64,000 nt of DNA from the NCBI GenBank assembly GCA_052035175.1, contig JBPOHV010000001.1, positions 366,773 through 430,772 on the forward strand, written 5' to 3'. Positions 24,660-43,075 of the stretch are shown here, in pieces. The position numbers and the translations under genes were made by a program. The notes under the pieces are model-generated. The model was given only the letters and a program-made list of their open reading frames with translations, made no database searches and was not told the DNA's origin. The DNA is from a candidate division WWE3 bacterium (GTDB lineage Bacteria; Patescibacteriota; WWE3; UBA101185; UBA10185). Numbering within the stretch: the stretch's first letter is position 1; every line of letters begins with the position of its first letter.

Positions 24660-24838
24660 TTAAAAATTGTACGCCACCTCTGTGTAGTCCAACAAGTGCG
24701 AAGTCTAACTCCTAACTTAGCAGTCACTATTTGGTCACATAGTAGGGACATGGTAACAGAGCCTATAGTATATGATAAATTTAACAATTTAACTTAGTCA
24801 GCCTTTATAGGCTGACTTAAAACTATAGGAGAAATCTC

Positions 24839-25087
24839 ATGCTATCTGAAATCGCAACAAAAATGCTCCGGAGCGGAAATCCACTCCAAATGACTACAGC
24901 TGTCATTCTCGTAATGGATGAGCTGTATAGCGCATTGCGCGACCTGCAGAAAAAGGAACACCTTTCAAGTAAAGTTCTTTTGGGATTTGCAAAGCAGCAA
25001 TTGCAGATTGCAGACGCCCTTGGATTTACTGTCCACAGTTGTCGTGTCACTCCCTTAGAAGCATCGGATCCCGTATCCGAACAATAA
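24839..25087 (+). CDS. small hypothetical protein (82 aa) with strong SD
   Basis: AGGAG 7 nt upstream of the ATG. GC-richer than its surroundings. Preceded by the hairpin GTCAGCCTTTATAGGCTGAC. Confidence 0.35.
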   Translation: MLSEIATKMLRSGNPLQMTTAVILVMDELYSALRDLQKKEHLSSKVLLGFAKQQLQIADALGFTVHSCRVTPLEASDPVSEQ

Positions 25088-32573: not shown

Positions 32574-32588
32574 GGGGGAATTTTATAT

Positions 32589-32612
32589 AGGGCTAAGCCT
32601 GGTTAAACCCTA
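32589..32612. repeat. GC-rich palindromic element GGGCTAAGCC-TGG-TTAAACCC
   Basis: Same family as 19175 and 19797. Left boundary of the GC-rich cassette. Confidence 0.65.
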
Positions 32613-32687
32613 TATTAGTCTGATACAAATTGTACTATAATTGTACTATTTGGCTGTTTTGGCTTATAATTGCTTTAGCAATCTTCT

Positions 32688-32707
32688 GGGATGCGGAGGC
32701 GTCAAGG
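32688..32707. repeat. Left arm of 20-bp inverted repeat flanking the small secreted-protein ORF
   Basis: GGGATGCGGAGGCGTCAAGG. Its partner is CAAGGATGCCTCCGCATCCCC at 33058-33078 (18 of 20 complementary). Confidence 0.65.
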
Positions 32708-32722
32708 AAAAGGAGGTTTGAT

Positions 32723-33046
32723 ATGAAATTCATTAAGGGTGCAGTTTTTGCACTCTTTTTAATTCTCATAGCTGGGATGGCGGTGCAAGCCGCTGCCCAG
32801 CCTGCACGCGATAGCGTGCAAATCACACTCGCCAGCGGTGTCGCTGGTGAGATCACTGAAAAAACTGTGAGCTGCGGAAAAGTGCAGCTTACTTTTTTTT
32901 CAGACAATACACTTTTCGCCCCTGGAGTACGGGGCGAAAGAGGAAAGCTGATTTTCGAAGGGGGAATTGAACTTACGGTCACCGTCCAAAACTTGGACGG
33001 TGGTATAAAGTACACTGCGACCTCAGTCGGGTGTACTTTTAATTAA
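32723..33046 (+). CDS. Small secreted protein (signal peptide, two Cys), GC-rich cassette gene
   Basis: Strong RBS AAGGAGG 6 nt upstream of the ATG. Signal peptide MKFIKGAVFALFLILIAGMAVQAAAQ. The ORF is flanked by a 20-bp inverted repeat. Confidence 0.5.
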   Translation: MKFIKGAVFALFLILIAGMAVQAAAQPARDSVQITLASGVAGEITEKTVSCGKVQLTFFSDNTLFAPGVRGERGKLIFEGGIELTVTVQNLDGGIKYTATSVGCTFN

Positions 33047-33057
33047 GTTTCAAATCA

Positions 33058-33078
33058 CAAGGATGCCTCCGCATCCCC
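33058..33078. repeat. Right arm of the inverted repeat flanking the small secreted-protein ORF
   Basis: See 32688-32707. Confidence 0.65.
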
Positions 33079-33091
33079 CTTCGTACTAATA

Positions 33092-33111
33092 GGGTTTAAC
33101 CAGGTTTAACC
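33092..33111. repeat. GC-rich palindromic element GGGTTTAACC-AGG-TTTAACC (reverse orientation of 32589 copy)
   Basis: Near reverse-complement of 32591-32610. Confidence 0.6.
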
Positions 33112-33190
33112 TTTTAATCTTATTATCCAATTTATGCTAATCATTGCTACTAGCGTATGCTATTAGAAGTAAACATAGGTAGTTGTGCGA

Positions 33191-33213
33191 CAGGCTTAGC
33201 CTGGCCTAGCCCT
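33191..33213. repeat. GC-rich palindromic element AGGCTTAGCC-TGG-CCTAGCCC
   Basis: Same family. Right boundary, just upstream of uvrB. Confidence 0.65.
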
Positions 33214-33227
33214 TAGGTCATATGTTA

Positions 33228-35337: not shown

Positions 35338-36741
35338 ATGCCTAACCACACAAAGTATGGTGATCTTTTTGGAGATAGTATGCCGGCAGAGGCGCATAGA
35401 CCTGCCAGATATTATTTTGCGCATGGTCAGCCGGTAGAGCGTTGGGAGGCTGAGCTGTTGGTTACTCCAGAAGTTCTAGATATTACGCAGAAGTTAGCTG
35501 GTGATGGCTCTGCAGTTTTAGCTGGAGGTACTGGCTTATATGCTACCTATGGCGGAAATATTCATAAAAGAGATTACGATATTACAGTTGCTGATTTACC
35601 TTTAACTGCCAACTCCACATTAGCATCATTAGGTTATGCGTATGTTTCTGGTGATTATGCTCAGCGATACAAAAAGGGGAATGTAACAATAGATATATTA
35701 AGTGCTAAACGTGTAGCTGATGCTAGTATACATGAGTTAACTAGCTTAAAATCCCAGTTACTTCAATTATCACTGCCAGGGGATGTAATGTCTAAAGCAC
35801 TTGAGCAAATTGTACGTTCAGAAAAGCTGTTGCTATCCAATGTGCTCGAATATCAAATGCGTGCGAATTGTTTTTTCAATATCGAGTTATTGGGGTATGG
35901 AGTTGATAATGCAGGGGCTATTTCTGTATTTGATGCAGGGCACATCCTTCAGGATCCAAATGAGATACACAGCTTGGATCATGCTTATAAAGCTGGCACG
36001 TTGCCGCATGCTCCTAGATACACCGTAAATACGTATTCAACGCGTAATACATTCACACAATTAATTACTGCTACAGCTGGTTCTGAACACCCACTAATGT
36101 TCACCTCAGATATGATTATGTGGTACCTAGAGAATTATGGTAGAAGCATGAGTAAATGTGCAAAAAATGATGCATCTCTTCCTTACAGTCAGTCGGCGTA
36201 TATCGACTATACTACTATTATAGATCTTGTTTTAAAAGGTGACGCACCATTTAAAGTTTCTAAGGATCTTTTAGATAAATTGCAAACTCGAGGTTTTTCA
36301 TCTTTAGAGAGTTTTGTACGTGCAAATATATGTCGCCATTTTGTGCAAGCTTTTATTTATAACCCAGAAAAGGCTATAGAGTTTTTATTTACTGAAGGGG
36401 ATATTGTTGCACCAGCACTTATGCCTAGTGTAGCATTAGGTGAAGGTGATCATAGAAGGACTACACGTGTAAGCATGTTGAGTTTGGCGGAAAAGGCCTT
36501 TCCTAAAAAGAAAGTTTGGGCGAGAGTTCCTGAATTTAGCTCCTCGCATCATCTTCAAACTGAAAAGTATGTACACTTACCGCAAAGTGTAGAACAGGCA
36601 CTGGCATTTTTATTGGTTGGGTTAAATGCAGGTGATTCTGTTGATGAGCTTTTAGCTTATTGGGCATCGATTGAAGGATTTAAAATGAATATAGATAAAA
36701 CTGAAATTGAAAAAGCTATGGTAGCTTTTAAAAAGTTATAA
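35338..36741 (+). CDS. hypothetical protein, possible nucleotidyltransferase-fold domain
   Basis: Segment LAGGTGLYATYGGNIHKRDYDITVAD fits the minimal pol-beta NTase pattern [GS]-x(9-13)-DhDhhh. The remaining ~380 aa have no recognisable motif. Locally GC-richer. Confidence 0.45.
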   Translation: MPNHTKYGDLFGDSMPAEAHRPARYYFAHGQPVERWEAELLVTPEVLDITQKLAGDGSAVLAGGTGLYATYGGNIHKRDYDITVADLPLTANSTLASLGYAYVSGDYAQRYKKGNVTIDILSAKRVADASIHELTSLKSQLLQLSLPGDVMSKALEQIVRSEKLLLSNVLEYQMRANCFFNIELLGYGVDNAGAISVFDAGHILQDPNEIHSLDHAYKAGTLPHAPRYTVNTYSTRNTFTQLITATAGSEHPLMFTSDMIMWYLENYGRSMSKCAKNDASLPYSQSAYIDYTTIIDLVLKGDAPFKVSKDLLDKLQTRGFSSLESFVRANICRHFVQAFIYNPEKAIEFLFTEGDIVAPALMPSVALGEGDHRRTTRVSMLSLAEKAFPKKKVWARVPEFSSSHHLQTEKYVHLPQSVEQALAFLLVGLNAGDSVDELLAYWASIEGFKMNIDKTEIEKAMVAFKKL

Positions 36742-36743
36742 TT

Positions 36744-37982
36744 ATGAAGCCTGTAGTATCTAATGCTTTACTCGAGCGTTTTTCTACTATGCTTATCGAT
36801 CAGGCTAGAGATTTGGATACCAGTATCACAACTTTTCGTGGTAGTTGGGTAACCTCTATTTTGATGTATTTAGCCAGAGAGCGCCGACATACGTATCTTA
36901 AGAATGCACAGGTAATTTTGCCTATCAGTGTTAAAAGCTTATATACAGATAAGAATGCAACGTTTGGTAATACATATAATTATTACAAAGAATTCTATAA
37001 AAATTTGACTATATCAACTCACACTGACTTAGAGAGTTTAATTTATGCACTTACGCATGGCGCTGATTACAAAGTTACGATATTGGCTAACGGGTTTGGT
37101 ACTCTTTTACAAACTAACAACACACATTTCAGTGCAGCAATCGCTTTAAGAGAGTTGAAAAAAATAAATCCTAAAAATGTGAGCTTTATCTTTGTTAATA
37201 CTGTAGAAATTTATCCTACCGATATACAACAAATCCCTGGATTGATGTCTAGCTTCTTACAAAACATGCGTTGGCAGCAAGACTTTGTTATTGATAAGGA
37301 AAGTGTAGCTAATATTTTATGTAATGAAACAGGTAAGCGAGAGTATGAAGAGAACGATTTATTAATATCAAAAGTATTTGAATACGCATATAATGATCCT
37401 TCTGTAGTGCAAATCATAGGAAAAAATCTATTAATTGACGCAGACTTTGAGAGGCAACTTTTGTCTGCTGGTAGCATTGCTGACCTATATGAAGTGATAG
37501 GTAAAGATAAGCTTGATTCACGTTATCGCCAGATTTTGAGCAGCCTAAAAAAAGAATCAAGGCAAAGTTTGCAGTATTATCTTGAATCTGACAATTCTGC
37601 GCATTTACCGACGATTTACTTGTTAAAAACAAATTTACTTGTTAGGAGTCATGATAGCTATAAGGCAATGAACCCTCTTTTTGATCACTATTTAAAGTCT
37701 GTAGACTTTCACTCAGCAGACATTTATGAATCAAGCGTTGATAAGCTAACGCGTGCATTAACTGGTCAAGAGCAGCAACTCTTTAATCTGTTACAAGTTA
37801 AACATGGCAAATTTGCTACCAAAGACGAAATCGCTCAAACTATTTGGGGAGATACTTGGCAAGATGTGTATAGTGACTGGGCAATTGATAAGCTTGTCTC
37901 TACACTACGCAAAAAACTTGTAGACAATAATTATGAAAAGACAATAAAAGCAGTGAGAAACAAAGGTATTATGTTAGTTTGA
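36744..37982 (+). CDS. hypothetical protein with C-terminal OmpR/PhoB-type winged-helix DNA-binding domain
   Basis: C-terminus LTGQEQQLFNLL...TKDEIAQTIWGD...LVSTLRKKL...KAVRNKGIMLV matches the Trans_reg_C pattern. The N-terminal ~320 aa are unknown. Confidence 0.5.
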   Translation: MKPVVSNALLERFSTMLIDQARDLDTSITTFRGSWVTSILMYLARERRHTYLKNAQVILPISVKSLYTDKNATFGNTYNYYKEFYKNLTISTHTDLESLIYALTHGADYKVTILANGFGTLLQTNNTHFSAAIALRELKKINPKNVSFIFVNTVEIYPTDIQQIPGLMSSFLQNMRWQQDFVIDKESVANILCNETGKREYEENDLLISKVFEYAYNDPSVVQIIGKNLLIDADFERQLLSAGSIADLYEVIGKDKLDSRYRQILSSLKKESRQSLQYYLESDNSAHLPTIYLLKTNLLVRSHDSYKAMNPLFDHYLKSVDFHSADIYESSVDKLTRALTGQEQQLFNLLQVKHGKFATKDEIAQTIWGDTWQDVYSDWAIDKLVSTLRKKLVDNNYEKTIKAVRNKGIMLV

Positions 37983-38034
37983 ACTTGGTTAGCTAAAAAA
38001 TCCTAGTAAGAAAAGAAATACACCTGCATCTATC

Positions 38035-38058
38035 AAGCAGGTTTTTATAATAAAGTCG
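38035..38058 (+). terminator. Rho-independent terminator
   Basis: CCTGC-ATCTATCAA-GCAGG followed by TTTTTAT, directly after the 36744..37982 gene. Confidence 0.6.
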
Positions 38059-38167
38059 CTAAAATGTTTATTGGCTTCAAGCTATTTACTCATTTTCGCT
38101 CAGCCGCCACGCCTTGCTATAGGATAACATCTTTTCTAATAATCTTATGTTCAAAAGGAGTTAGCAA

Positions 38168-38467
38168 ATGAAAACCGGCTGGTTTTTTGCAATAATCTTC
38201 GCAGTAGTGGCTTTAATCATAGCGACACATCTAGCTTATCAACAGCCATATCTGCAAACCCTGGATCTTTATCCGGGGTCTCACGTCAAATTAAATAATG
38301 TGGATTTTTTCATGGATGAAGAAACTGGTTTTTCTGCTTCGGCTTCATGCTTGGGATCTCTGAAGCTTTATGGTGACCAGAAAGATCATTATGGATTTAC
38401 GTGTAACAACATCGACTTTGATGTTGTGTACAGCGAATCTGTAACAAAGATTTCTTGGGCTCCCTAG
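38168..38467 (+). CDS. small membrane-anchored protein (island gene 1)
   Basis: RBS AAAGGAG 7 nt upstream of the ATG. N-terminal TM WFFAIIFAVVALIIATHLAY. 99 aa. Confidence 0.4.
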   Translation: MKTGWFFAIIFAVVALIIATHLAYQQPYLQTLDLYPGSHVKLNNVDFFMDEETGFSASASCLGSLKLYGDQKDHYGFTCNNIDFDVVYSESVTKISWAP

Positions 38468-38473
38468 GAAAAG

Positions 38474-38542
38474 AGCGGGTTTGGACTCGTAGATACAGAT
38501 TAGCTTTGGCTAGTTTTTGTTTACGGTCCGACCCGCTTTTTT
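38474..38542 (+). terminator. Long-loop rho-independent terminator
   Basis: AGCGGGT...(inner GGAC..GTCC stem)...ACCCGC followed by TTTTTT. Confidence 0.5.
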
Positions 38543-38778
38543 AGTTGTGTTAGTAAGCATTTTTCTACTCAGTTTTACTCAAGCCGATATAACCTATAGC
38601 TCGTATCATATCTTCATACAATTGAATAGAACTTTGACATCCAAATACTTTTCACTAGAACTCTAGAAGGAGGCTTTTTAGGCTTAACTGCGCTGTCGAG
38701 CTTATAAAGCCTTCTTTTATGAGAAGGTTCCCCAATGTGGGGAAATGCTAATAATCGCCGCAGTTGTGGCCAAGTCAA

Positions 38779-39076
38779 GGAGCTTGATATGTCTCGAATC
38801 AATGAACTTTTCACAAATCCAGTTGTAACCTTTTTGTGGTTTTTAATCCCGACCGGGGTACTCTGGTTCTTTGGGGTTGTGGCCCTTGGTATGGGTAGCA
38901 GTCTTGGAGATCTCTTGTTCGGAGCTGTCTTTGGCGGCGCCGTAACTGCATTCTTTTTTACAGTGTCTATGGAGGCGAAAAGTCGTGGGGAGCCCGGTTG
39001 GTTTTACACCTTCTTGATCTTTGGGCTCATTTCCATTGCAATTCCCATCACTGCTTTCATTAAAGCAGCTTATTAG
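38779..39076 (+). CDS. small 3-TM membrane protein (island gene 2)
   Basis: RBS AAGGAG 7 nt upstream of ATG 38779. Hydrophobic throughout. Preceded by the hairpin TTCCCCAATGTGGGGAA. Confidence 0.45.
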
Positions 39077-39085
39077 GCTGTACCT

Positions 39086-39148
39086 AGGTGGGCGAGGTGC
39101 TCATGGATAAAGATCTTAAGATCTCACACCATGGCACCTCGCTCACTA
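39086..39148 (+). repeat. Structured hairpin repeat, copy 1 (GGTGGGCGAGGTGC...GCACCTCGCTCAC)
   Basis: Imperfect stem of about 17 bp with a roughly 22-nt loop containing the GATCTTAAGATC palindrome. Homologous to 39999-40059, with compensatory substitutions between the copies. Confidence 0.7.
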
Positions 39149-39264
39149 AATCAATTACTAGAAAAAAGTTTGTACTAGATTTCAAAAAATGAAAGTTAGT
39201 ATGAGCTTTCTTCTGGAAAAATCTAGATGAAAGGTATTATGTTGCGTTGAGTAAGGAGTTAGTA

Positions 39265-39972
39265 ATGTCTCAGAAAATCTTGTCTTTTGGTCTCGCCCTG
39301 TTCGTGGCCTTTATGGCCGCTTGCAGCGGAGGTGGAGAACCGCAGTCTAGTGTAGTAGTAACTGCATATGATTGCAAAGGCGATGTCTTGGATCTCCAAA
39401 ATCGAGACCAGTTTATCCTAAACGGTCAAGAAGTTTTATTTGCGGATCAAGGATTCGCAAATTATCAATTTCTTGACACAGACTGGAACCAGCTCGCTGC
39501 TGGTCCAGATAAAGTTCCGTCAGATTCAATTCATTTAGATGATGAAAAAGTCTCGTTGGCCGGATCTGACTGGAAAATCACAAACATAGGTACCACTGTA
39601 GAGGGGAAAAGCAGAATATGCTTTGAGGAATGGAACGTGAATTACATTCCTCCAACAGTGACGCCAACGCCAACCCCGGTTGGGGAAATTGGTCTGGCGC
39701 TAACCCCAACTCCAGCTTATTCCTGTCCCCAAGGCGAATTCAACTATGTTGAAATCGAAGCTGGGAATCCCCATTACTCTTCTCTTGATGGTGATACCAC
39801 TGTGGTTATCGAAAAAAATACAAGTGGTTTTTCCATTGAGGTGGTCGGAGAGTTTTACGTCAGTGGAGACGTAAGTATTGGTTATGGAGAAGAAGCCATA
39901 ATTGGCGATTACCGATTCCACATCATTCGTGGTTATGAGGACGCATTATGTGTCCTTGTGACTCCTCCTTAA
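39265..39972 (+). CDS. Putative lipoprotein (island gene 3)
   Basis: RBS AAGGAGTTAGTA then ATG. Signal plus lipobox-like FVAFMAAC|SGG. Pro/Thr linker PPTVTPTPTPVGEIGLALTPTP. Confidence 0.5.
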   Translation: MSQKILSFGLALFVAFMAACSGGGEPQSSVVVTAYDCKGDVLDLQNRDQFILNGQEVLFADQGFANYQFLDTDWNQLAAGPDKVPSDSIHLDDEKVSLAGSDWKITNIGTTVEGKSRICFEEWNVNYIPPTVTPTPTPVGEIGLALTPTPAYSCPQGEFNYVEIEAGNPHYSSLDGDTTVVIEKNTSGFSIEVVGEFYVSGDVSIGYGEEAIIGDYRFHIIRGYEDALCVLVTPP

Positions 39973-39998
39973 CCTAAGGAGTAAAACTAAGGAAATCA

Positions 39999-40059
39999 AG
40001 GTGGGCGAGATGCTCGTGAAGAAGATCGCATGATCAGATATCACGGCATCCGCCCACTA
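39999..40059 (+). repeat. Structured hairpin repeat, copy 2 (GGTGGGCGAGATGC...GCATCCGCCCAC)
   Basis: Same architecture as 39086-39148. The GGTGC/GCACC to GATGC/GCATC and CATGG/CCATG to CGTG/CACG changes keep the pairing intact. Confidence 0.7.
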
Positions 40060-40153
40060 AACCAAGAAGAAAGTTTCTATCAGCCTTTGGATCTCTGAAA
40101 GCAAAGATTGGTAGAAGCCTTCTGCTAAGAAGGTAAACCACAAGGAGGCAGTA

Positions 40154-40603
40154 ATGTTTTTTGTAGCGATATTGCGTAAGTTTTGGTGGATCTTGCCTGT
40201 GGCAATGGTGATTATGTTAATCGCTATGGCTATGGGAGTAGGAGATCCCGCTCCGGTTTTACCAGAGACAGAAACACCCGCCAATGAAGTTAGTGCATTA
40301 TGTACTGATTTCTTCGGCTGGTCCGTTGTGGATAGTACTGACTTTGTCAGCGCTGAATATGTGAATGGCGACATTTACGTAGAGTGGACCAATAGTGGTC
40401 CGAATCCACGCATTATGGGGGTGAACTTTTATGGCTGGATCGTCAAAGATCCACAGCCTGGTGTACATCTGGAAATTCCTCAGGGTATTCTGCTCCTCAG
40501 TGACGATGGACAAATATTGTCCATCTTACCTACAGGGCAGGATCCAGTGGTGATTGAAATAGGCACAACCTGCCTGCAAAAGCCACTGCCTACCAGAGGA
40601 TAA
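40154..40603 (+). CDS. small exported protein (island gene 4)
   Basis: RBS AAGGAGG 5 nt upstream of the ATG. N-terminal TM/signal WWILPVAMVIMLIAMAMG. 149 aa. Confidence 0.45.
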   Translation: MFFVAILRKFWWILPVAMVIMLIAMAMGVGDPAPVLPETETPANEVSALCTDFFGWSVVDSTDFVSAEYVNGDIYVEWTNSGPNPRIMGVNFYGWIVKDPQPGVHLEIPQGILLLSDDGQILSILPTGQDPVVIEIGTTCLQKPLPTRG

Positions 40604-40606
40604 ATT

Positions 40607-40671
40607 GAGCGGTAGATCGCTGTAGATAGTCCAAATCAGGACGCAATCTCTACGCGATCTACCGCTTTTTC
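40607..40671 (+). terminator. Rho-independent terminator with large structured loop
   Basis: GAGCGGTAGATCGC...GCGATCTACCGC followed by TTTTTC. Perfect 13-bp stem. Confidence 0.65.
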
Positions 40672-40786
40672 AGTTTTATACTAATGACTCATCAAATGAT
40701 ACTAGTTCTGCTTAACTCAGTTTCACTCATGCCCTCATACCTCATAGTGCTAGTATGCCGCTATTAATCTGATTAAAGGAGATGCC

Positions 40787-40990
40787 ATGTTAGTACTAAC
40801 TAAGAATACCGAACTTACCTTGTTTGGTATAAAAATTACGTTTGTAAATAACAGTTTGGATTTTTCAGCTGCATCCGAACTGGATGTTTTGTATGTCCCA
40901 GATTCCAATCCAAGAATTGTAAATGTTTGTTATCGGAATCGATCAATTTTTGTTGTGCAGCTACACGACATGCTTATTATTTCATGGTAG
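40787..40990 (+). CDS. small hypothetical protein (island gene 5, 67 aa)
   Basis: RBS AAAGGAG 5 nt upstream of the ATG. No TM helix. Confidence 0.3.
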   Translation: MLVLTKNTELTLFGIKITFVNNSLDFSAASELDVLYVPDSNPRIVNVCYRNRSIFVVQLHDMLIISW

Positions 40991-41048
40991 TTACCTTCAA
41001 TACCCAACAGTTTGGCATAAAGACCAAACTACAAATAAGGAGAATCTG

Positions 41049-41303
41049 ATGAAACGCTTTATGAAAAACCCGTTGATAACCTGGCTCGTACTTCTTGTTT
41101 TACTAACACCATTTTGGTGGTTAGCAAATGGAGGGGGCCGTGAGATAGATCTACCGCTAGCTCTGTCGGGGGTTAATGCATACATATTAATGTATGCATT
41201 GATTACTCGTGAAAAGGGTGACGCGCTCTTTTTGTCATTAGTCTATGCCGTTGCAGGACTTGTGATGCTAGGGTTTTCTTGTTATCTGATTATTATAGGG
41301 TAG
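41049..41303 (+). CDS. small 2-3 TM membrane protein (island gene 6)
   Basis: RBS AAGGAG 6 nt upstream of ATG 41049. Begins MKRFMKNPLITWLVLLVLLTPFWW. Confidence 0.4.
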   Translation: MKRFMKNPLITWLVLLVLLTPFWWLANGGGREIDLPLALSGVNAYILMYALITREKGDALFLSLVYAVAGLVMLGFSCYLIIIG

Positions 41304-41310
41304 AAAGAAA

Positions 41311-41373
41311 AAGGCGGTAGGTTTGCTGAGTACATTAATCAATGATTGATGCGCTCGCGATCTACCGCTTTTT
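41311..41373. terminator. Bidirectional rho-independent terminator sharing its 3' arm with the 40607-40671 terminator
   Basis: GAAAAAGGCGGTAG...GCGATCTACCGC followed by TTTTTC. Sits between convergent genes. The 18-nt 3' arm is identical to the 40654-40671 arm. Confidence 0.6.
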
Positions 41374-41379
41374 CTTTTC

Positions 41380-42783
41380 TTATTTATAGTAATCGTTTAA
41401 TTGACTATATGGCACTATCTTCATATCTGGGTTTTGTGTTAGCAAGTCTTTTTGTAACTGCAGATCTAACGTATCATCTCTGAATATCACAGCTTTTATA
41501 TCTTTACTAGAAACATGCATATTTCTTGGTTGTTTCGTATAACCTTTACTTGGATGCAACACGCCTTCTACGTATACACCATTGCCCTTCATTGCGCCTG
41601 CTTCAGGCGTTCCTGGTAAATATGTATAGCTCATGTGTTTTTCTATTTCAAATACTTCTCGGAATGCATGTACCATTCTTGCATCAACAAGTGAAAGCAT
41701 TTTGATTAAAGTTCCATCTGCAAATTCATGTCGTCCTATTGGTTCTCCTCGATCACCATATGTATATTCAACTCTTAAGGCTAGTGCTTCGTTGAAATGA
41801 ACAAAGATAGGTCTTTTTTTGCCCCATTCGTAGCGCTCGCCAGTTTTTTTTGAAATAAGTGCCCCGTACAATACAGAGTAAGGTTCGTTATTAACGGTTG
41901 CTTCTAATTGGGCTGGTGCGGTTGCATTCGAAAAAATAATAGTGTCGTATATTTCTAGTATCTGTTGTTCTAGTTCGTCTACTTGCATTGTGTCTATTAA
42001 TTCCGCTGCTTGAGAGTCCACTATCTCAATAGGTGAATCGCCAAGAGTGTGTTTTAATAATTCAATTGCTTCCCTCTGTTCGTTGGAATCAGCAATATTG
42101 TTGTATATTGTTTCTACCGCTTTTTCTATTTCGAGTTTTATTTTGTTTTGTATTTTTTCGCGTGTTAAAAACTTGCCAACTTTTTCAATAACTGCTATAG
42201 CCGCATTTTCACTTGTTTGCTTATTAATAGCAGTAGTTATGTTTTTTTCTGTAAATAGTGGTTCTTCTTGTATATTCTCAACTAGATGTATAAACTGAAT
42301 AACGGTTTGATTAGGCGCAGAAAAGTTTTCTAAGAAAAGTTCGTTTTTAGCCTCATCACAATCAACATCAGCGATGTTTACGCCTTTAACCTGTATTTGT
42401 ACACCACTCTCAGACTTAACCAGGCTATATTCATCTGGTAATCTTTTTTTTAATATTTCGATATCAGTATTTAATTTGGCAAATAGTATGGAGTGATCGC
42501 TTGCATTTGTTTTAAAAGAAATAGACATGAGTTCATTATCAGGAGTTTCCATTCTTATACTAGGTCCTGCTCCTAGTGTATCGATATATACTTTACACGC
42601 TTTAACCAAAGTGTCTGCGTGTGCAGTTTCATCTTCTATTACTTGTGTAAAATTCGCATACCTAGCAATTTTTTTGGTGTATGTTTCTAATAGTTCCAAC
42701 TTTAAATTTTCTTGGCTTGTTTGAACCTCATCAGCAGTGTTTTCAATATGAACTTCTTTTTCACTGGTTATATCATCAAGCAT
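41380..42783 (-). CDS. hypothetical protein (467 aa, acidic N-terminal half)
   Basis: Long ORF with no recognisable catalytic motif. Co-directional with the upstream 94-aa gene and separated from it by 8 bp. Confidence 0.5.
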   Translation of the reverse strand: MLDDITSEKEVHIENTADEVQTSQENLKLELLETYTKKIARYANFTQVIEDETAHADTLVKACKVYIDTLGAGPSIRMETPDNELMSISFKTNASDHSILFAKLNTDIEILKKRLPDEYSLVKSESGVQIQVKGVNIADVDCDEAKNELFLENFSAPNQTVIQFIHLVENIQEEPLFTEKNITTAINKQTSENAAIAVIEKVGKFLTREKIQNKIKLEIEKAVETIYNNIADSNEQREAIELLKHTLGDSPIEIVDSQAAELIDTMQVDELEQQILEIYDTIIFSNATAPAQLEATVNNEPYSVLYGALISKKTGERYEWGKKRPIFVHFNEALALRVEYTYGDRGEPIGRHEFADGTLIKMLSLVDARMVHAFREVFEIEKHMSYTYLPGTPEAGAMKGNGVYVEGVLHPSKGYTKQPRNMHVSSKDIKAVIFRDDTLDLQLQKDLLTQNPDMKIVPYSQLNDYYK

Positions 42784-42790
42784 GTAAGGT

Positions 42791-43075
42791 TTATGCTTCT
42801 CCTTGTACTAGTTTTCTCCAGTCAGTTTTTGATGGAGCAGCCGTTGGGGTTGCTTGTTTTTCATCTTTAGTGGGCTCTTCTGTTAAACCTTCAAGTTTTA
42901 TGTCAGCTGCTTCTGCTGTTTCGGCTTGGACTTCTGGTGTTCCTTGACGCATCATAGCTGCTATTCTGTTCATCGTTTTTGAGGTAATTATCGTTTCTGG
43001 TTGTTTTTCATTTGGTGTTTCATTTGTACCTGTAACTTCCGAAAGTCTTTCTAATGGCATATATTTTCCTTTCAA
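42791..43075 (-). CDS. small acidic hypothetical protein (94 aa)
   Basis: First gene of the putative two-gene operon. Low-complexity Glu/Thr/Ala/Pro-rich sequence. Confidence 0.4.
   Translation of the reverse strand: MKGKYMPLERLSEVTGTNETPNEKQPETIITSKTMNRIAAMMRQGTPEVQAETAEAADIKLEGLTEEPTKDEKQATPTAAPSKTDWRKLVQGEA

Follow-up and report, generated by a model that had tools for sequence, protein, structure and literature searches.

A probably acquired, strain-variable array of small gene modules between uvrB and uvrA of a candidate division WWE3 bacterium

The stretch of DNA analysed here, called the window in the following, comprises 64,000 nt of contig JBPOHV010000001.1 of a candidate division WWE3 bacterium (assembly GCA_052035175.1, positions 366,773–430,772 of the forward strand). 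Bacteria of the candidate phyla radiation (CPR, Patescibacteria) are thought to be attached to host cells; their surface proteins are mostly unknown and gene gain by such tiny genomes is poorly documented. In the gap between uvrB and uvrA lies a block of ~3.3 kb (38060–41380, below also the island) with six small genes, g1–g6, which an earlier note, made from the sequence alone, had described as a horizontally acquired and coordinately organised secreted-protein module. The remaining genes of the window have housekeeping roles (polysaccharide synthesis, the dcw cluster, uvrABC, tRNA synthetases, ribonucleotide reductase). The island proteins are recorded in two sources, one NCBI contig and one independent Logan assembly, and since the 16.5 kb fetched around the block from the latter are 100% identical to the window, a local misassembly is unlikely. 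The block contains the following features (positions in the window and strand; aa, amino acids; SD, Shine–Dalgarno sequence; H, hairpin):

38022–38047 (+): weak intrinsic terminator, 6-bp stem and T5, −8.3 kcal/mol, which ends the upstream gene of a 412-aa winged helix–turn–helix (wHTH) protein and forms the left edge of the block
38168–38467 (+): g1, 99 aa, with Cys61, Cys79 and a single hydrophobic segment at the N-terminus (anchor or signal); SD AAGGAG at 38155–38160
38469–38543 (+): H1, terminator with a long stem between an A-run and a T-run (−43.5 kcal/mol; z −7.4); ends module 1
38567–38599 (+): D1 box, 33 nt, which recurs at 40715–40747 at 76% identity (local alignment z=6.4)
38661–38734 (+): structured leader of g2, with a first hairpin and, downstream of it, a CCTTCT-loop-AGAAGG hairpin resembling that before g4
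38789–39076 (+): g2, 95 aa, small integral membrane protein with three hydrophobic segments; SD at 38777–38782
39087–39216 (+): intercistronic RNA module, copy 1; hairpin A (H2) at 39087–39147, without a U-tract, and hairpin B at 39158–39216
39265–39972 (+): g3, predicted lipoprotein of 235 aa with lipobox Cys20; SD at 39253–39258
40000–40134 (+): intercistronic RNA module, copy 2; hairpins A (H3) at 40000–40058, B at 40075–40116 and C at 40117–40134
40154–40603 (+): g4, 149 aa, N-terminal signal or anchor, predicted beta-rich domain within Cys50/Cys140; SD at 40142–40147
40607–40671 (+): H4, long-stem terminator ending module 2; its 3′ arm (40653–40671) is the first copy of CGCGATCTACCGCTTTTTC
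40787–40990 (+): g5, 67 aa, no hydrophobic segment, host-like GC content at third codon positions (GC3, 0.31); SD at 40776–40781
41049–41303 (+): g6, 84 aa, three hydrophobic segments, architecture like g2; SD at 41037–41042
41302–41380 (bidirectional): H5, long-stem terminator with A-run and T-run, common to the g6 side and a convergent 467-aa gene

The sizes given earlier for g1, g4, g5 and g6 stand, while g2 and g3 are 95 and 235 aa long and not 99 and 236. By hydropathy and lipobox five of the six products are predicted to be envelope-targeted; g5 has no export signal, so that the claim had been too wide by one protein. In addition, g5 was missed by gene finders and is the weakest gene call of the six. 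The N-terminus of g3 (MSQKILSFGLALFVAFMAAC) has a hydrophobic segment at residues 3–24 and an FMAAC lipobox with Cys20, as expected for a lipoprotein. Its two predicted all-beta domains, each within a Cys pair (37/119 and 154/229), are connected by a Pro/Thr linker (PTVTPTPTP), and domain 1 is hypervariable across strains. In g4 the C-terminal third is variable. The six products would comprise anchored or secreted beta-rich domains bracketed by Cys pairs, one two-domain lipoprotein and two proteins with three transmembrane (TM) segments.

Judged by database comparison, all six products are ORFans. Every called island protein forms a singleton cluster, and g4 is the sole gene with a database homologue (P0013, 85% aa identity), its one near-relative among 5.8 billion clusters. 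For g3 no homologue was found in these clusters or among 1.84 billion representatives; g1, g2, g5 and g6 were compared by exact-cluster look-up only. An exhaustive HMMER search with g3 gave weak matches only, the score of the best being raised by the 11 identical Ig-like repeats of a 5750-aa protein. Pfam, NCBIfam, PHROGs and the PADLOC models of anti-phage defence had no match for the six proteins and their neighbours, save the wHTH of the 412-aa neighbour, and the PDB sequence search had none for g3 or g4. The AlphaFold2 models of g3 and g4 are all-beta at low confidence (mean predicted local distance difference test, pLDDT, of 45 and 48) and are for this reason not usable for fold assignment; with Foldseek they had no match in the PDB below E=0.02. 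The family and structure searches which the earlier note had proposed yielded neither a family nor a fold. Paralogy between g1 and g5, between g2 and g6 and between the Cys-bracketed domains of g3 and g4 was considered, and none was significant by BLASTP or hhalign.

The block is the GC-richest part of the window. Its GC content is 0.422, compared with 0.357±0.019 in 541 non-overlapping 3.3-kb windows (maximum 0.394; z=3.5), which confirms the contrast noticed earlier, although the surroundings average 36% and not ~33%. Pooled GC3 is 0.405 for the island and 0.272±0.033 for host genes (maximum 0.352), and the per-codon likelihood under a synonymous-codon model of the host lies at or below the host minimum for all six genes, so that codon usage is atypical as well. 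The dinucleotide distance is 80.6 as against 43±13, and even the island spacers are GC-raised (40% GC). Other membrane proteins of the window remain within the host range for GC3 and synonymous codon choice, unlike the island.

The translation signals differ likewise. AAGGAG stands 5–7 nt upstream of the ATG in 6/6 island open reading frames (ORFs), whereas a canonical SD is found at 0/47 other annotated starts of the window (Fisher p=4e-8) and under lenient motif rules at 2/47 (p=1e-6); the contrast drawn in the earlier note is therefore real. In 15/47 host genes a TATAAT-like box, often TGn-extended, ends 5–12 nt before the start, and we therefore read the mRNAs of these 15 as leaderless. 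Orthologues in relatives (L002–L009) show the same start context with the exception of lexA, which has an SD there, and initiation of translation in this clade appears to be mostly non-SD. As other membrane proteins of the window have no SD, it is not a general trait of envelope genes here. Loss of the anti-SD motif has been reported solely for a subgroup of Parcubacteria and not for WWE3 (PMC9297842), thus SD-led initiation should work in this organism. On the other hand, the SD occurs in the clade, as lexA of the relatives shows, and is by itself no proof of foreign origin. Host mRNAs would be mostly leaderless and without SD, whereas the island cistrons would be leadered or internal with structured spacers of ~185 nt, which might be why each of them carries its own strong SD.

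Folded singly, H1–H5 have minimum free energies (MFE) of −34.5 to −43.5 kcal/mol (z −6.8 to −8.4), and in an 80-nt folding scan of the whole + strand all five rank within the top eight segments of the window by stability; the remaining strong folds lie at 32771–33040. H1, H4 and H5 have the U-tract of intrinsic terminators and H2 and H3 lack it. The A- and T-runs around the former three indicate long-stem, probably bidirectional terminators. As had been claimed, a repeated hairpin family separates genes (H2 and H3 belong to one family) and terminators share a sequence arm: the 3′ arms of H4 and H5 contain the identical 19 nt CGCGATCTACCGCTTTTTC, with the second copy at 41356–41374 within H5, and this sequence occurs nowhere else in the window. 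The terminator placed earlier at 38035 is present, if only as the weak structure listed above. The D1 boxes are located ~25–45 nt downstream of the terminators H1 and H4 and are candidates for the promoter, or for the beginning of the leader, of modules 2 and 3; besides them a weak sigma-70-like match at 38114–38143 is the only promoter candidate.

With this arrangement one coordinated operon, as initially proposed, is not borne out, and three transcription-unit-like modules are seen instead. Module 1 would consist of g1 and terminator H1, module 2 of the D1 box, structured leader, g2, RNA module, g3, RNA module, g4 and terminator H4, and module 3 of the second box (D1′), g5, g6 and terminator H5. 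Within the leader of g2 (38661–38723) there is a perfect AGAAGGAGG without a start codon downstream, sequestered by AAAGCCTTCT in a hairpin of −32 kcal/mol; this orphan motif may act as a decoy, be left over from a former SD or belong to a regulatory switch. The sequences downstream of H1 and H4 were also compared with the 3′ end of the convergent gene as possible partial copies (an att-like duplication), which was rejected (z=3.1 and z=0.1), and a 21-nt repeat at 37962/39230 is within chance expectation by our own estimate.

The spacers between g2 and g3 (188 nt) and between g3 and g4 (181 nt) are 74% identical over their full length. In the three copies of hairpin A, including that of the g3–g4 spacer of a related strain (contig L202, see below), 5/19 stem pairs show compensatory double changes, and 94% of the cells are paired compared with at most 48% when the partner strand is slid. 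RNAalifold of the whole spacer adds hairpin B, with double changes in 10/44 pairs overall. One G·U pair of hairpin A is kept in 3/3 copies, and as it would be an A·C mismatch on the other strand, we infer that the constraint acts on the RNA of the + strand. Hairpin C (CCUUCU/AGAAGG) adjoins the SD of g4 and is also present before g2. Rfam did not match the spacer modules (best score 25 bits for a miRNA model, a chance match, against a gathering threshold of 70), nor any other part of the window. A covariance model of hairpin A found solely the three known copies across the window and the relatives. A metagenome scan with a 17-mer of hairpin A gave at least 120 matches; among those listed all were chance matches, mostly in GC-rich contigs, and none had the hairpin.

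The anatomy of the spacers and their covariation suggest roles at the RNA level. Hairpin A, with ~24 bp and no U-tract, is most likely an RNase III-type processing site or a 3′-stabilising element that would uncouple the cistrons. The 3′ strand of hairpin B and hairpin C present CCUUCU tracts, similar to an anti-SD, beside the SD and may tune the access of ribosomes by occlusion.

In six related genomes (L003–L008) the order PEP-utilising enzyme (PEP, phosphoenolpyruvate), eno, His-phosphatase, lexA, uvrB ... uvrA, uvrC is conserved. The UvrB of the window is at most 71% identical to that of any species representative (top matches are candidate division WWE3 UBA1397 and metagenome-assembled genomes labelled Patescibacteria/Saccharibacteria). 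The gap between uvrB and uvrA measures 1.2–6.4 kb in the relatives and 7.9 kb in the window, and its content is different in every related genome. A tblastn search with the ten genes at 35338–43075 found no match in the gaps of L003–L008. The comparison of related genomes suggested in the earlier note thus shows the block absent from the syntenic site in 6/6, and the island neither shares the composition of its flanks nor consists of core genes in syntenic positions. At this site L004, L005 and L007 have in common an ~800-aa membrane protein and an SD-led, TM-anchored protein of ~170 aa. The outer four gap genes of the window code for a 467-aa ORFan, the 412-aa protein, which has only a C-terminal OmpR-type winged helix and no receiver domain, and a convergent pair of 467-aa and 89-aa ORFans; the two 467-aa proteins are unrelated to each other. 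All four have host-like composition and no canonical SD, so that solely the six-gene core deviates.

One related strain could be compared at the island itself, a 1,492-bp contig (L202) of the metagenome assembly GCA_020047435.1, which carries the g4 homologue P0013. Positions 293–1345 of L202 correspond to 39637–40679 of the window and positions 1317–1492 to 41355–41530. The segments compare as follows (nt, nucleotide identity; dS and dN, synonymous and non-synonymous divergence):

g3 domain 1: nt not alignable; 35% aa identity
g3 linker and domain 2: 97.3% nt; dS 0.085; dN 0.026
g3–g4 spacer: 93.9% nt
g4 codons 1–80: 97.1% nt; dS 0.108; dN 0.011
g4 codons 81–149: 80.5% nt; dS 0.57; dN 0.17
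40672–41374 (+): unit of module 3, 703 bp with D1′ box, g5, g6 and the left arm of H5; absent from L202
3′ end of the flanking 467-aa gene: 90% nt; dS 0.36; dN 0.06

In L202, g4 and H4 directly adjoin the convergent 467-aa gene, and the two 19-nt repeats CGCGATCTACCGCTTTTTC precisely delimit the 703-bp indel, whose breakpoint lies inside the repeat. The low dN/dS ratios reflect purifying selection and identify g3 and g4 as genuine coding genes. The synonymous divergence of the conserved island segments is below that of the flank (p=0.01) and far below that of the C-terminus of g4 (p=5e-6). For this one strain pair, the alignments point to module turnover at a terminator arm together with allelic replacement at the scale of domains. 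A diversity-generating retroelement was considered and rejected, as the window contains neither a further copy of the variable g3 and g4 segments, such as a template repeat would be, nor a reverse transcriptase domain, and the substitutions show no adenine-specific pattern.

A second contig of the same metagenome (L203, JAHZTN010448674.1) carries eno, which differs from the window at a proportion of synonymous sites (pS) of 0.685. If L202 and L203 belong to one organism, the island would have been exchanged far more recently than the core diverged, which is only suggestive because the contigs are unlinked. The final 370 nt of L203 (979–1349) are unmatched in the window and its enolase is cut at 266 aa; the contig may be chimeric, which limits its use as a yardstick of core divergence.

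We suggest that the block was acquired laterally and forms, in the flexible uvrB–uvrA gap, a strain-variable array made up of three small expression modules, and we assign this reading a probability of roughly 0.6. Lateral acquisition is proposed because of the composition, the absence from relatives, the ORFan status and the strain comparison. Of the earlier claim, foreign composition and SD, absence from relatives, ORFan content and modularity are retained, whereas a single operon and an exported g5 are not. Recombination at the conserved 3′ arm of family-related terminators would add or remove whole modules, which the comparison with L202 shows in part, and domain-sized segments would be replaced through allelic recombination. 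The conserved RNA hairpins seem to be also sites where gene units are gained and lost. The pattern would fit envelope proteins under diversifying selection, for example, in contact with host cells or phages, and from localisation and diversification a role in cell–cell or phage interaction is a reasoned guess.

Several points weigh against this proposal. The junction in L202 is possibly an assembly collapse at a 29-nt shared stretch of a 1.5-kb metagenomic contig, and in a comparison with a single strain the 703-bp indel is unpolarised and can be either an insertion or a deletion. The SD could reflect the architecture of leadered mRNA rather than foreign origin, g5 may not be a gene, and promoters, operon structure and RNA processing of the block are what we infer from its layout. 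No donor, att site, mobility gene or recombinase was found (the latter two searched for in the whole window), and no function is assignable from the family, phage, defence and PDB searches of the island proteins. Of the hallmarks of genomic islands, the block shows a deviating composition and is missing from relatives at the syntenic site; it has no integrase, tRNA or direct repeats around the whole island, and the internal 19-nt repeats bound module 3 only. Integrase, transposase, reverse transcriptase and phage domains are found in no protein of the window, nor is there a tRNA gene in it.

Genes of the same class are not confined to the block. One of them lies between lexA and uvrB:

32723–33046 (+): seventh gene of the class, 107 aa, SD AAGGAGG, signal peptide, two Cys, GC 0.48

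The gap between lexA and uvrB is 705 nt long in the window and 76–186 nt in the six relatives, owing to an insertion of ~640 nt (32580–33220) which separates a conserved ATGTCAAG element from the −10 box of uvrB in the divergent promoter gap. It is flanked by nested inverted repeats (32586–32613/33089–33116, 28 nt, 86%; 32688–32703/33062–33077, 16 nt, 94%) and no other part of the window forms RNA folds as stable as those in this region (MFE −50 per 80 nt). The insertion has the appearance of a cassette of this gene class, or of a unit of the class that can invert or move. The palindrome GGCTWAGCC is present in five copies (19176, 19186, 19798, 32591, 33193), all intergenic, compared with 0.27 expected, and two of them bracket the insertion; it may be an element of the repetitive extragenic palindromic (REP) kind or a recombination target. 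Another ORF of 82 aa (24839–25087, +) has AGGAG 7 nt before its ATG and a GC content of 0.46; it codes for a singleton ORFan without a TM segment which is not secreted. A 9-bp hairpin precedes the ORF in the region 24796–25087, which lies in a gene-poor gap of 912 nt upstream of a response-regulator/histidine-kinase pair. With the 107-aa and 82-aa ORFs, SD-led GC-rich small genes form a dispersed class, of which the block is the largest cluster.

Could the block instead be a native, vertically inherited and fast-evolving locus? Its GC content, SDs and hairpins would then follow from functional constraints, that is, from leadered polycistronic mRNA, stable RNA structures and hydrophobic or Gly/Pro-rich proteins, and not from transfer. 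SD-led genes do occur in relatives (lexA and the TM-anchored genes before uvrA), GC content at first and second codon positions (GC1, GC2) is raised in the island too, the stems of the spacers require G+C for stability, and no mobility genes were found in the window. Against it stand GC3 (0.405 vs 0.27) and a synonymous codon choice beyond the host range, in which the island differs from the other membrane proteins of the window, and the block is missing at the syntenic site of six related genomes, its conserved parts are less diverged synonymously than the adjacent flank gene, and a module indel separates the strains. We therefore regard a native locus as unlikely. Quite unlikely, in our view, are cassettes of toxins or bacteriocins with their immunity proteins, exchanged between strains as in polymorphic toxin loci, in which the small Cys-containing proteins g1, g3, g4 and perhaps g5, secreted or anchored, would be paired with the immunity-like proteins g2 and g6 with their three TM segments. 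The gene order puts g1 with g2 and g5 with g6, and the units are strain-variable ORFans with their own terminators, with mosaic variation at the C-terminus of g4; yet neither a double-glycine leader nor a processing ABC transporter was found, nor a toxin domain or an immunity family already known, g5 has no signal, and g2 and g6 are not significantly similar.

The earlier note had also offered a phage-derived moron block. A phage or satellite remnant that was left after prophage decay, with morons such as superinfection-exclusion lipoproteins or membrane proteins, would explain why the units end in terminators of their own and deviate in composition from the genes around them, and small lipoproteins and membrane proteins are typical moron cargo. 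We consider it very unlikely, as there is no phage signal of any kind: no PHROG match below E=0.01, no similarity to 50,697 phage records or IMG/VR (a plasmid search was negative too), no phage, integrase or att features in the 64 kb, and flanks made up of housekeeping genes (uvrB, uvrA and others). As there is neither a phage signal nor a mobility gene in the window, the moron block is an analogy only. More improbable still is an integron-like cassette array of the CALIN type (cluster of attC sites lacking integron integrases), its hairpins serving as attC-type sites for an integrase encoded elsewhere. Small co-oriented ORFs are each followed by an imperfect hairpin of 60–75 nt with extrahelical bases, and a unit was gained or lost exactly at a hairpin arm. 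By inspection, however, no RYYYAAC/GTTRRRY core sites flank H1–H5 (for example, H2: AGGTGGGCG...CGCTCACTAAAT), the hairpins fall into two distinct families, H1, H4 and H5 are ordinary U-tract terminators, the conserved unit spans the whole spacer of 185 nt and not the hairpin alone, no tyrosine recombinase (IntI) is among the window proteins, and the conserved G·U pairs indicate RNA. A further possibility, and quite a speculative one, is that long terminator hairpins and two-hairpin spacers represent an undescribed CPR platform for gene capture and expression, in which SD-led cassettes would insert and excise at the 3′ arm of terminators. Its logic would be integron-like without attC and IntI, the 107-aa cassette with its inverted repeats would be a dispersed example, and the spacer would be a new class of cis-regulatory RNA gating access to the SD.

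Returning to the laterally acquired array, the block is of a known kind, namely a flexible genomic islet of moron-like units. With the flexible islets and islands at conserved chromosomal hot spots, which are additive or replacement islands for surface structures, it shares the conserved flanks (uvrB, uvrA), variable content, atypical composition and envelope cargo as well as the presence/absence and mosaic differences between strains. It differs from them in being very small (3.3 kb), without a tRNA, integrase or insertion sequence, in units bounded by family-related terminators and in that every gene is an ORFan. Phage morons have in common with it strong intrinsic terminators, deviant composition and small membrane or lipoprotein cargo, but the block is not in a prophage, has no phage homology and its promoters are candidates. 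The ~24-bp bulged hairpins without U-tracts resemble the T7 early-region RNase III sites and the stabilising hairpins of malEFG (REP) and puf in their position between cistrons with an SD of their own and in a structure kept by covariation. There is no sequence relation, the processing would be by analogy, and the hairpin here belongs to a longer spacer, which has two or three hairpins and includes anti-SD-like tracts. Integron cassettes and CALINs are likewise arrays of small co-oriented ORFs with imperfect hairpins and show unit-sized indels at the hairpin, while the block has no attC cores and no integrase in the window, its hairpins are terminators or RNA elements and its modules contain several genes. 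The vsp, vlp and vsa loci of Mycoplasma are also tandem surface-protein genes of a small genome with conserved 5′ non-coding and divergent coding sequences; the block has no conserved signal-peptide block, inversion sites, recombinase or intragenic tandem repeats. What is unusual in the block is the contrast of SD-led and leaderless genes and the combination of covarying spacer RNA with terminator-bounded module exchange.

For the biology of these bacteria, the locus would be a hot spot at which envelope-protein genes are exchanged at the scale of both units and domains. In addition, the spacers provide a structured intercistronic RNA, with covariation support, that is absent from Rfam. No major concept is altered unless the gene-capture platform proves true, in which case a separately controlled "accessory translatome" would exist in an otherwise leaderless-translating organism. 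The contrast between a leaderless host and SD-dependent accessory genes could be used to flag recent acquisitions in such genomes.

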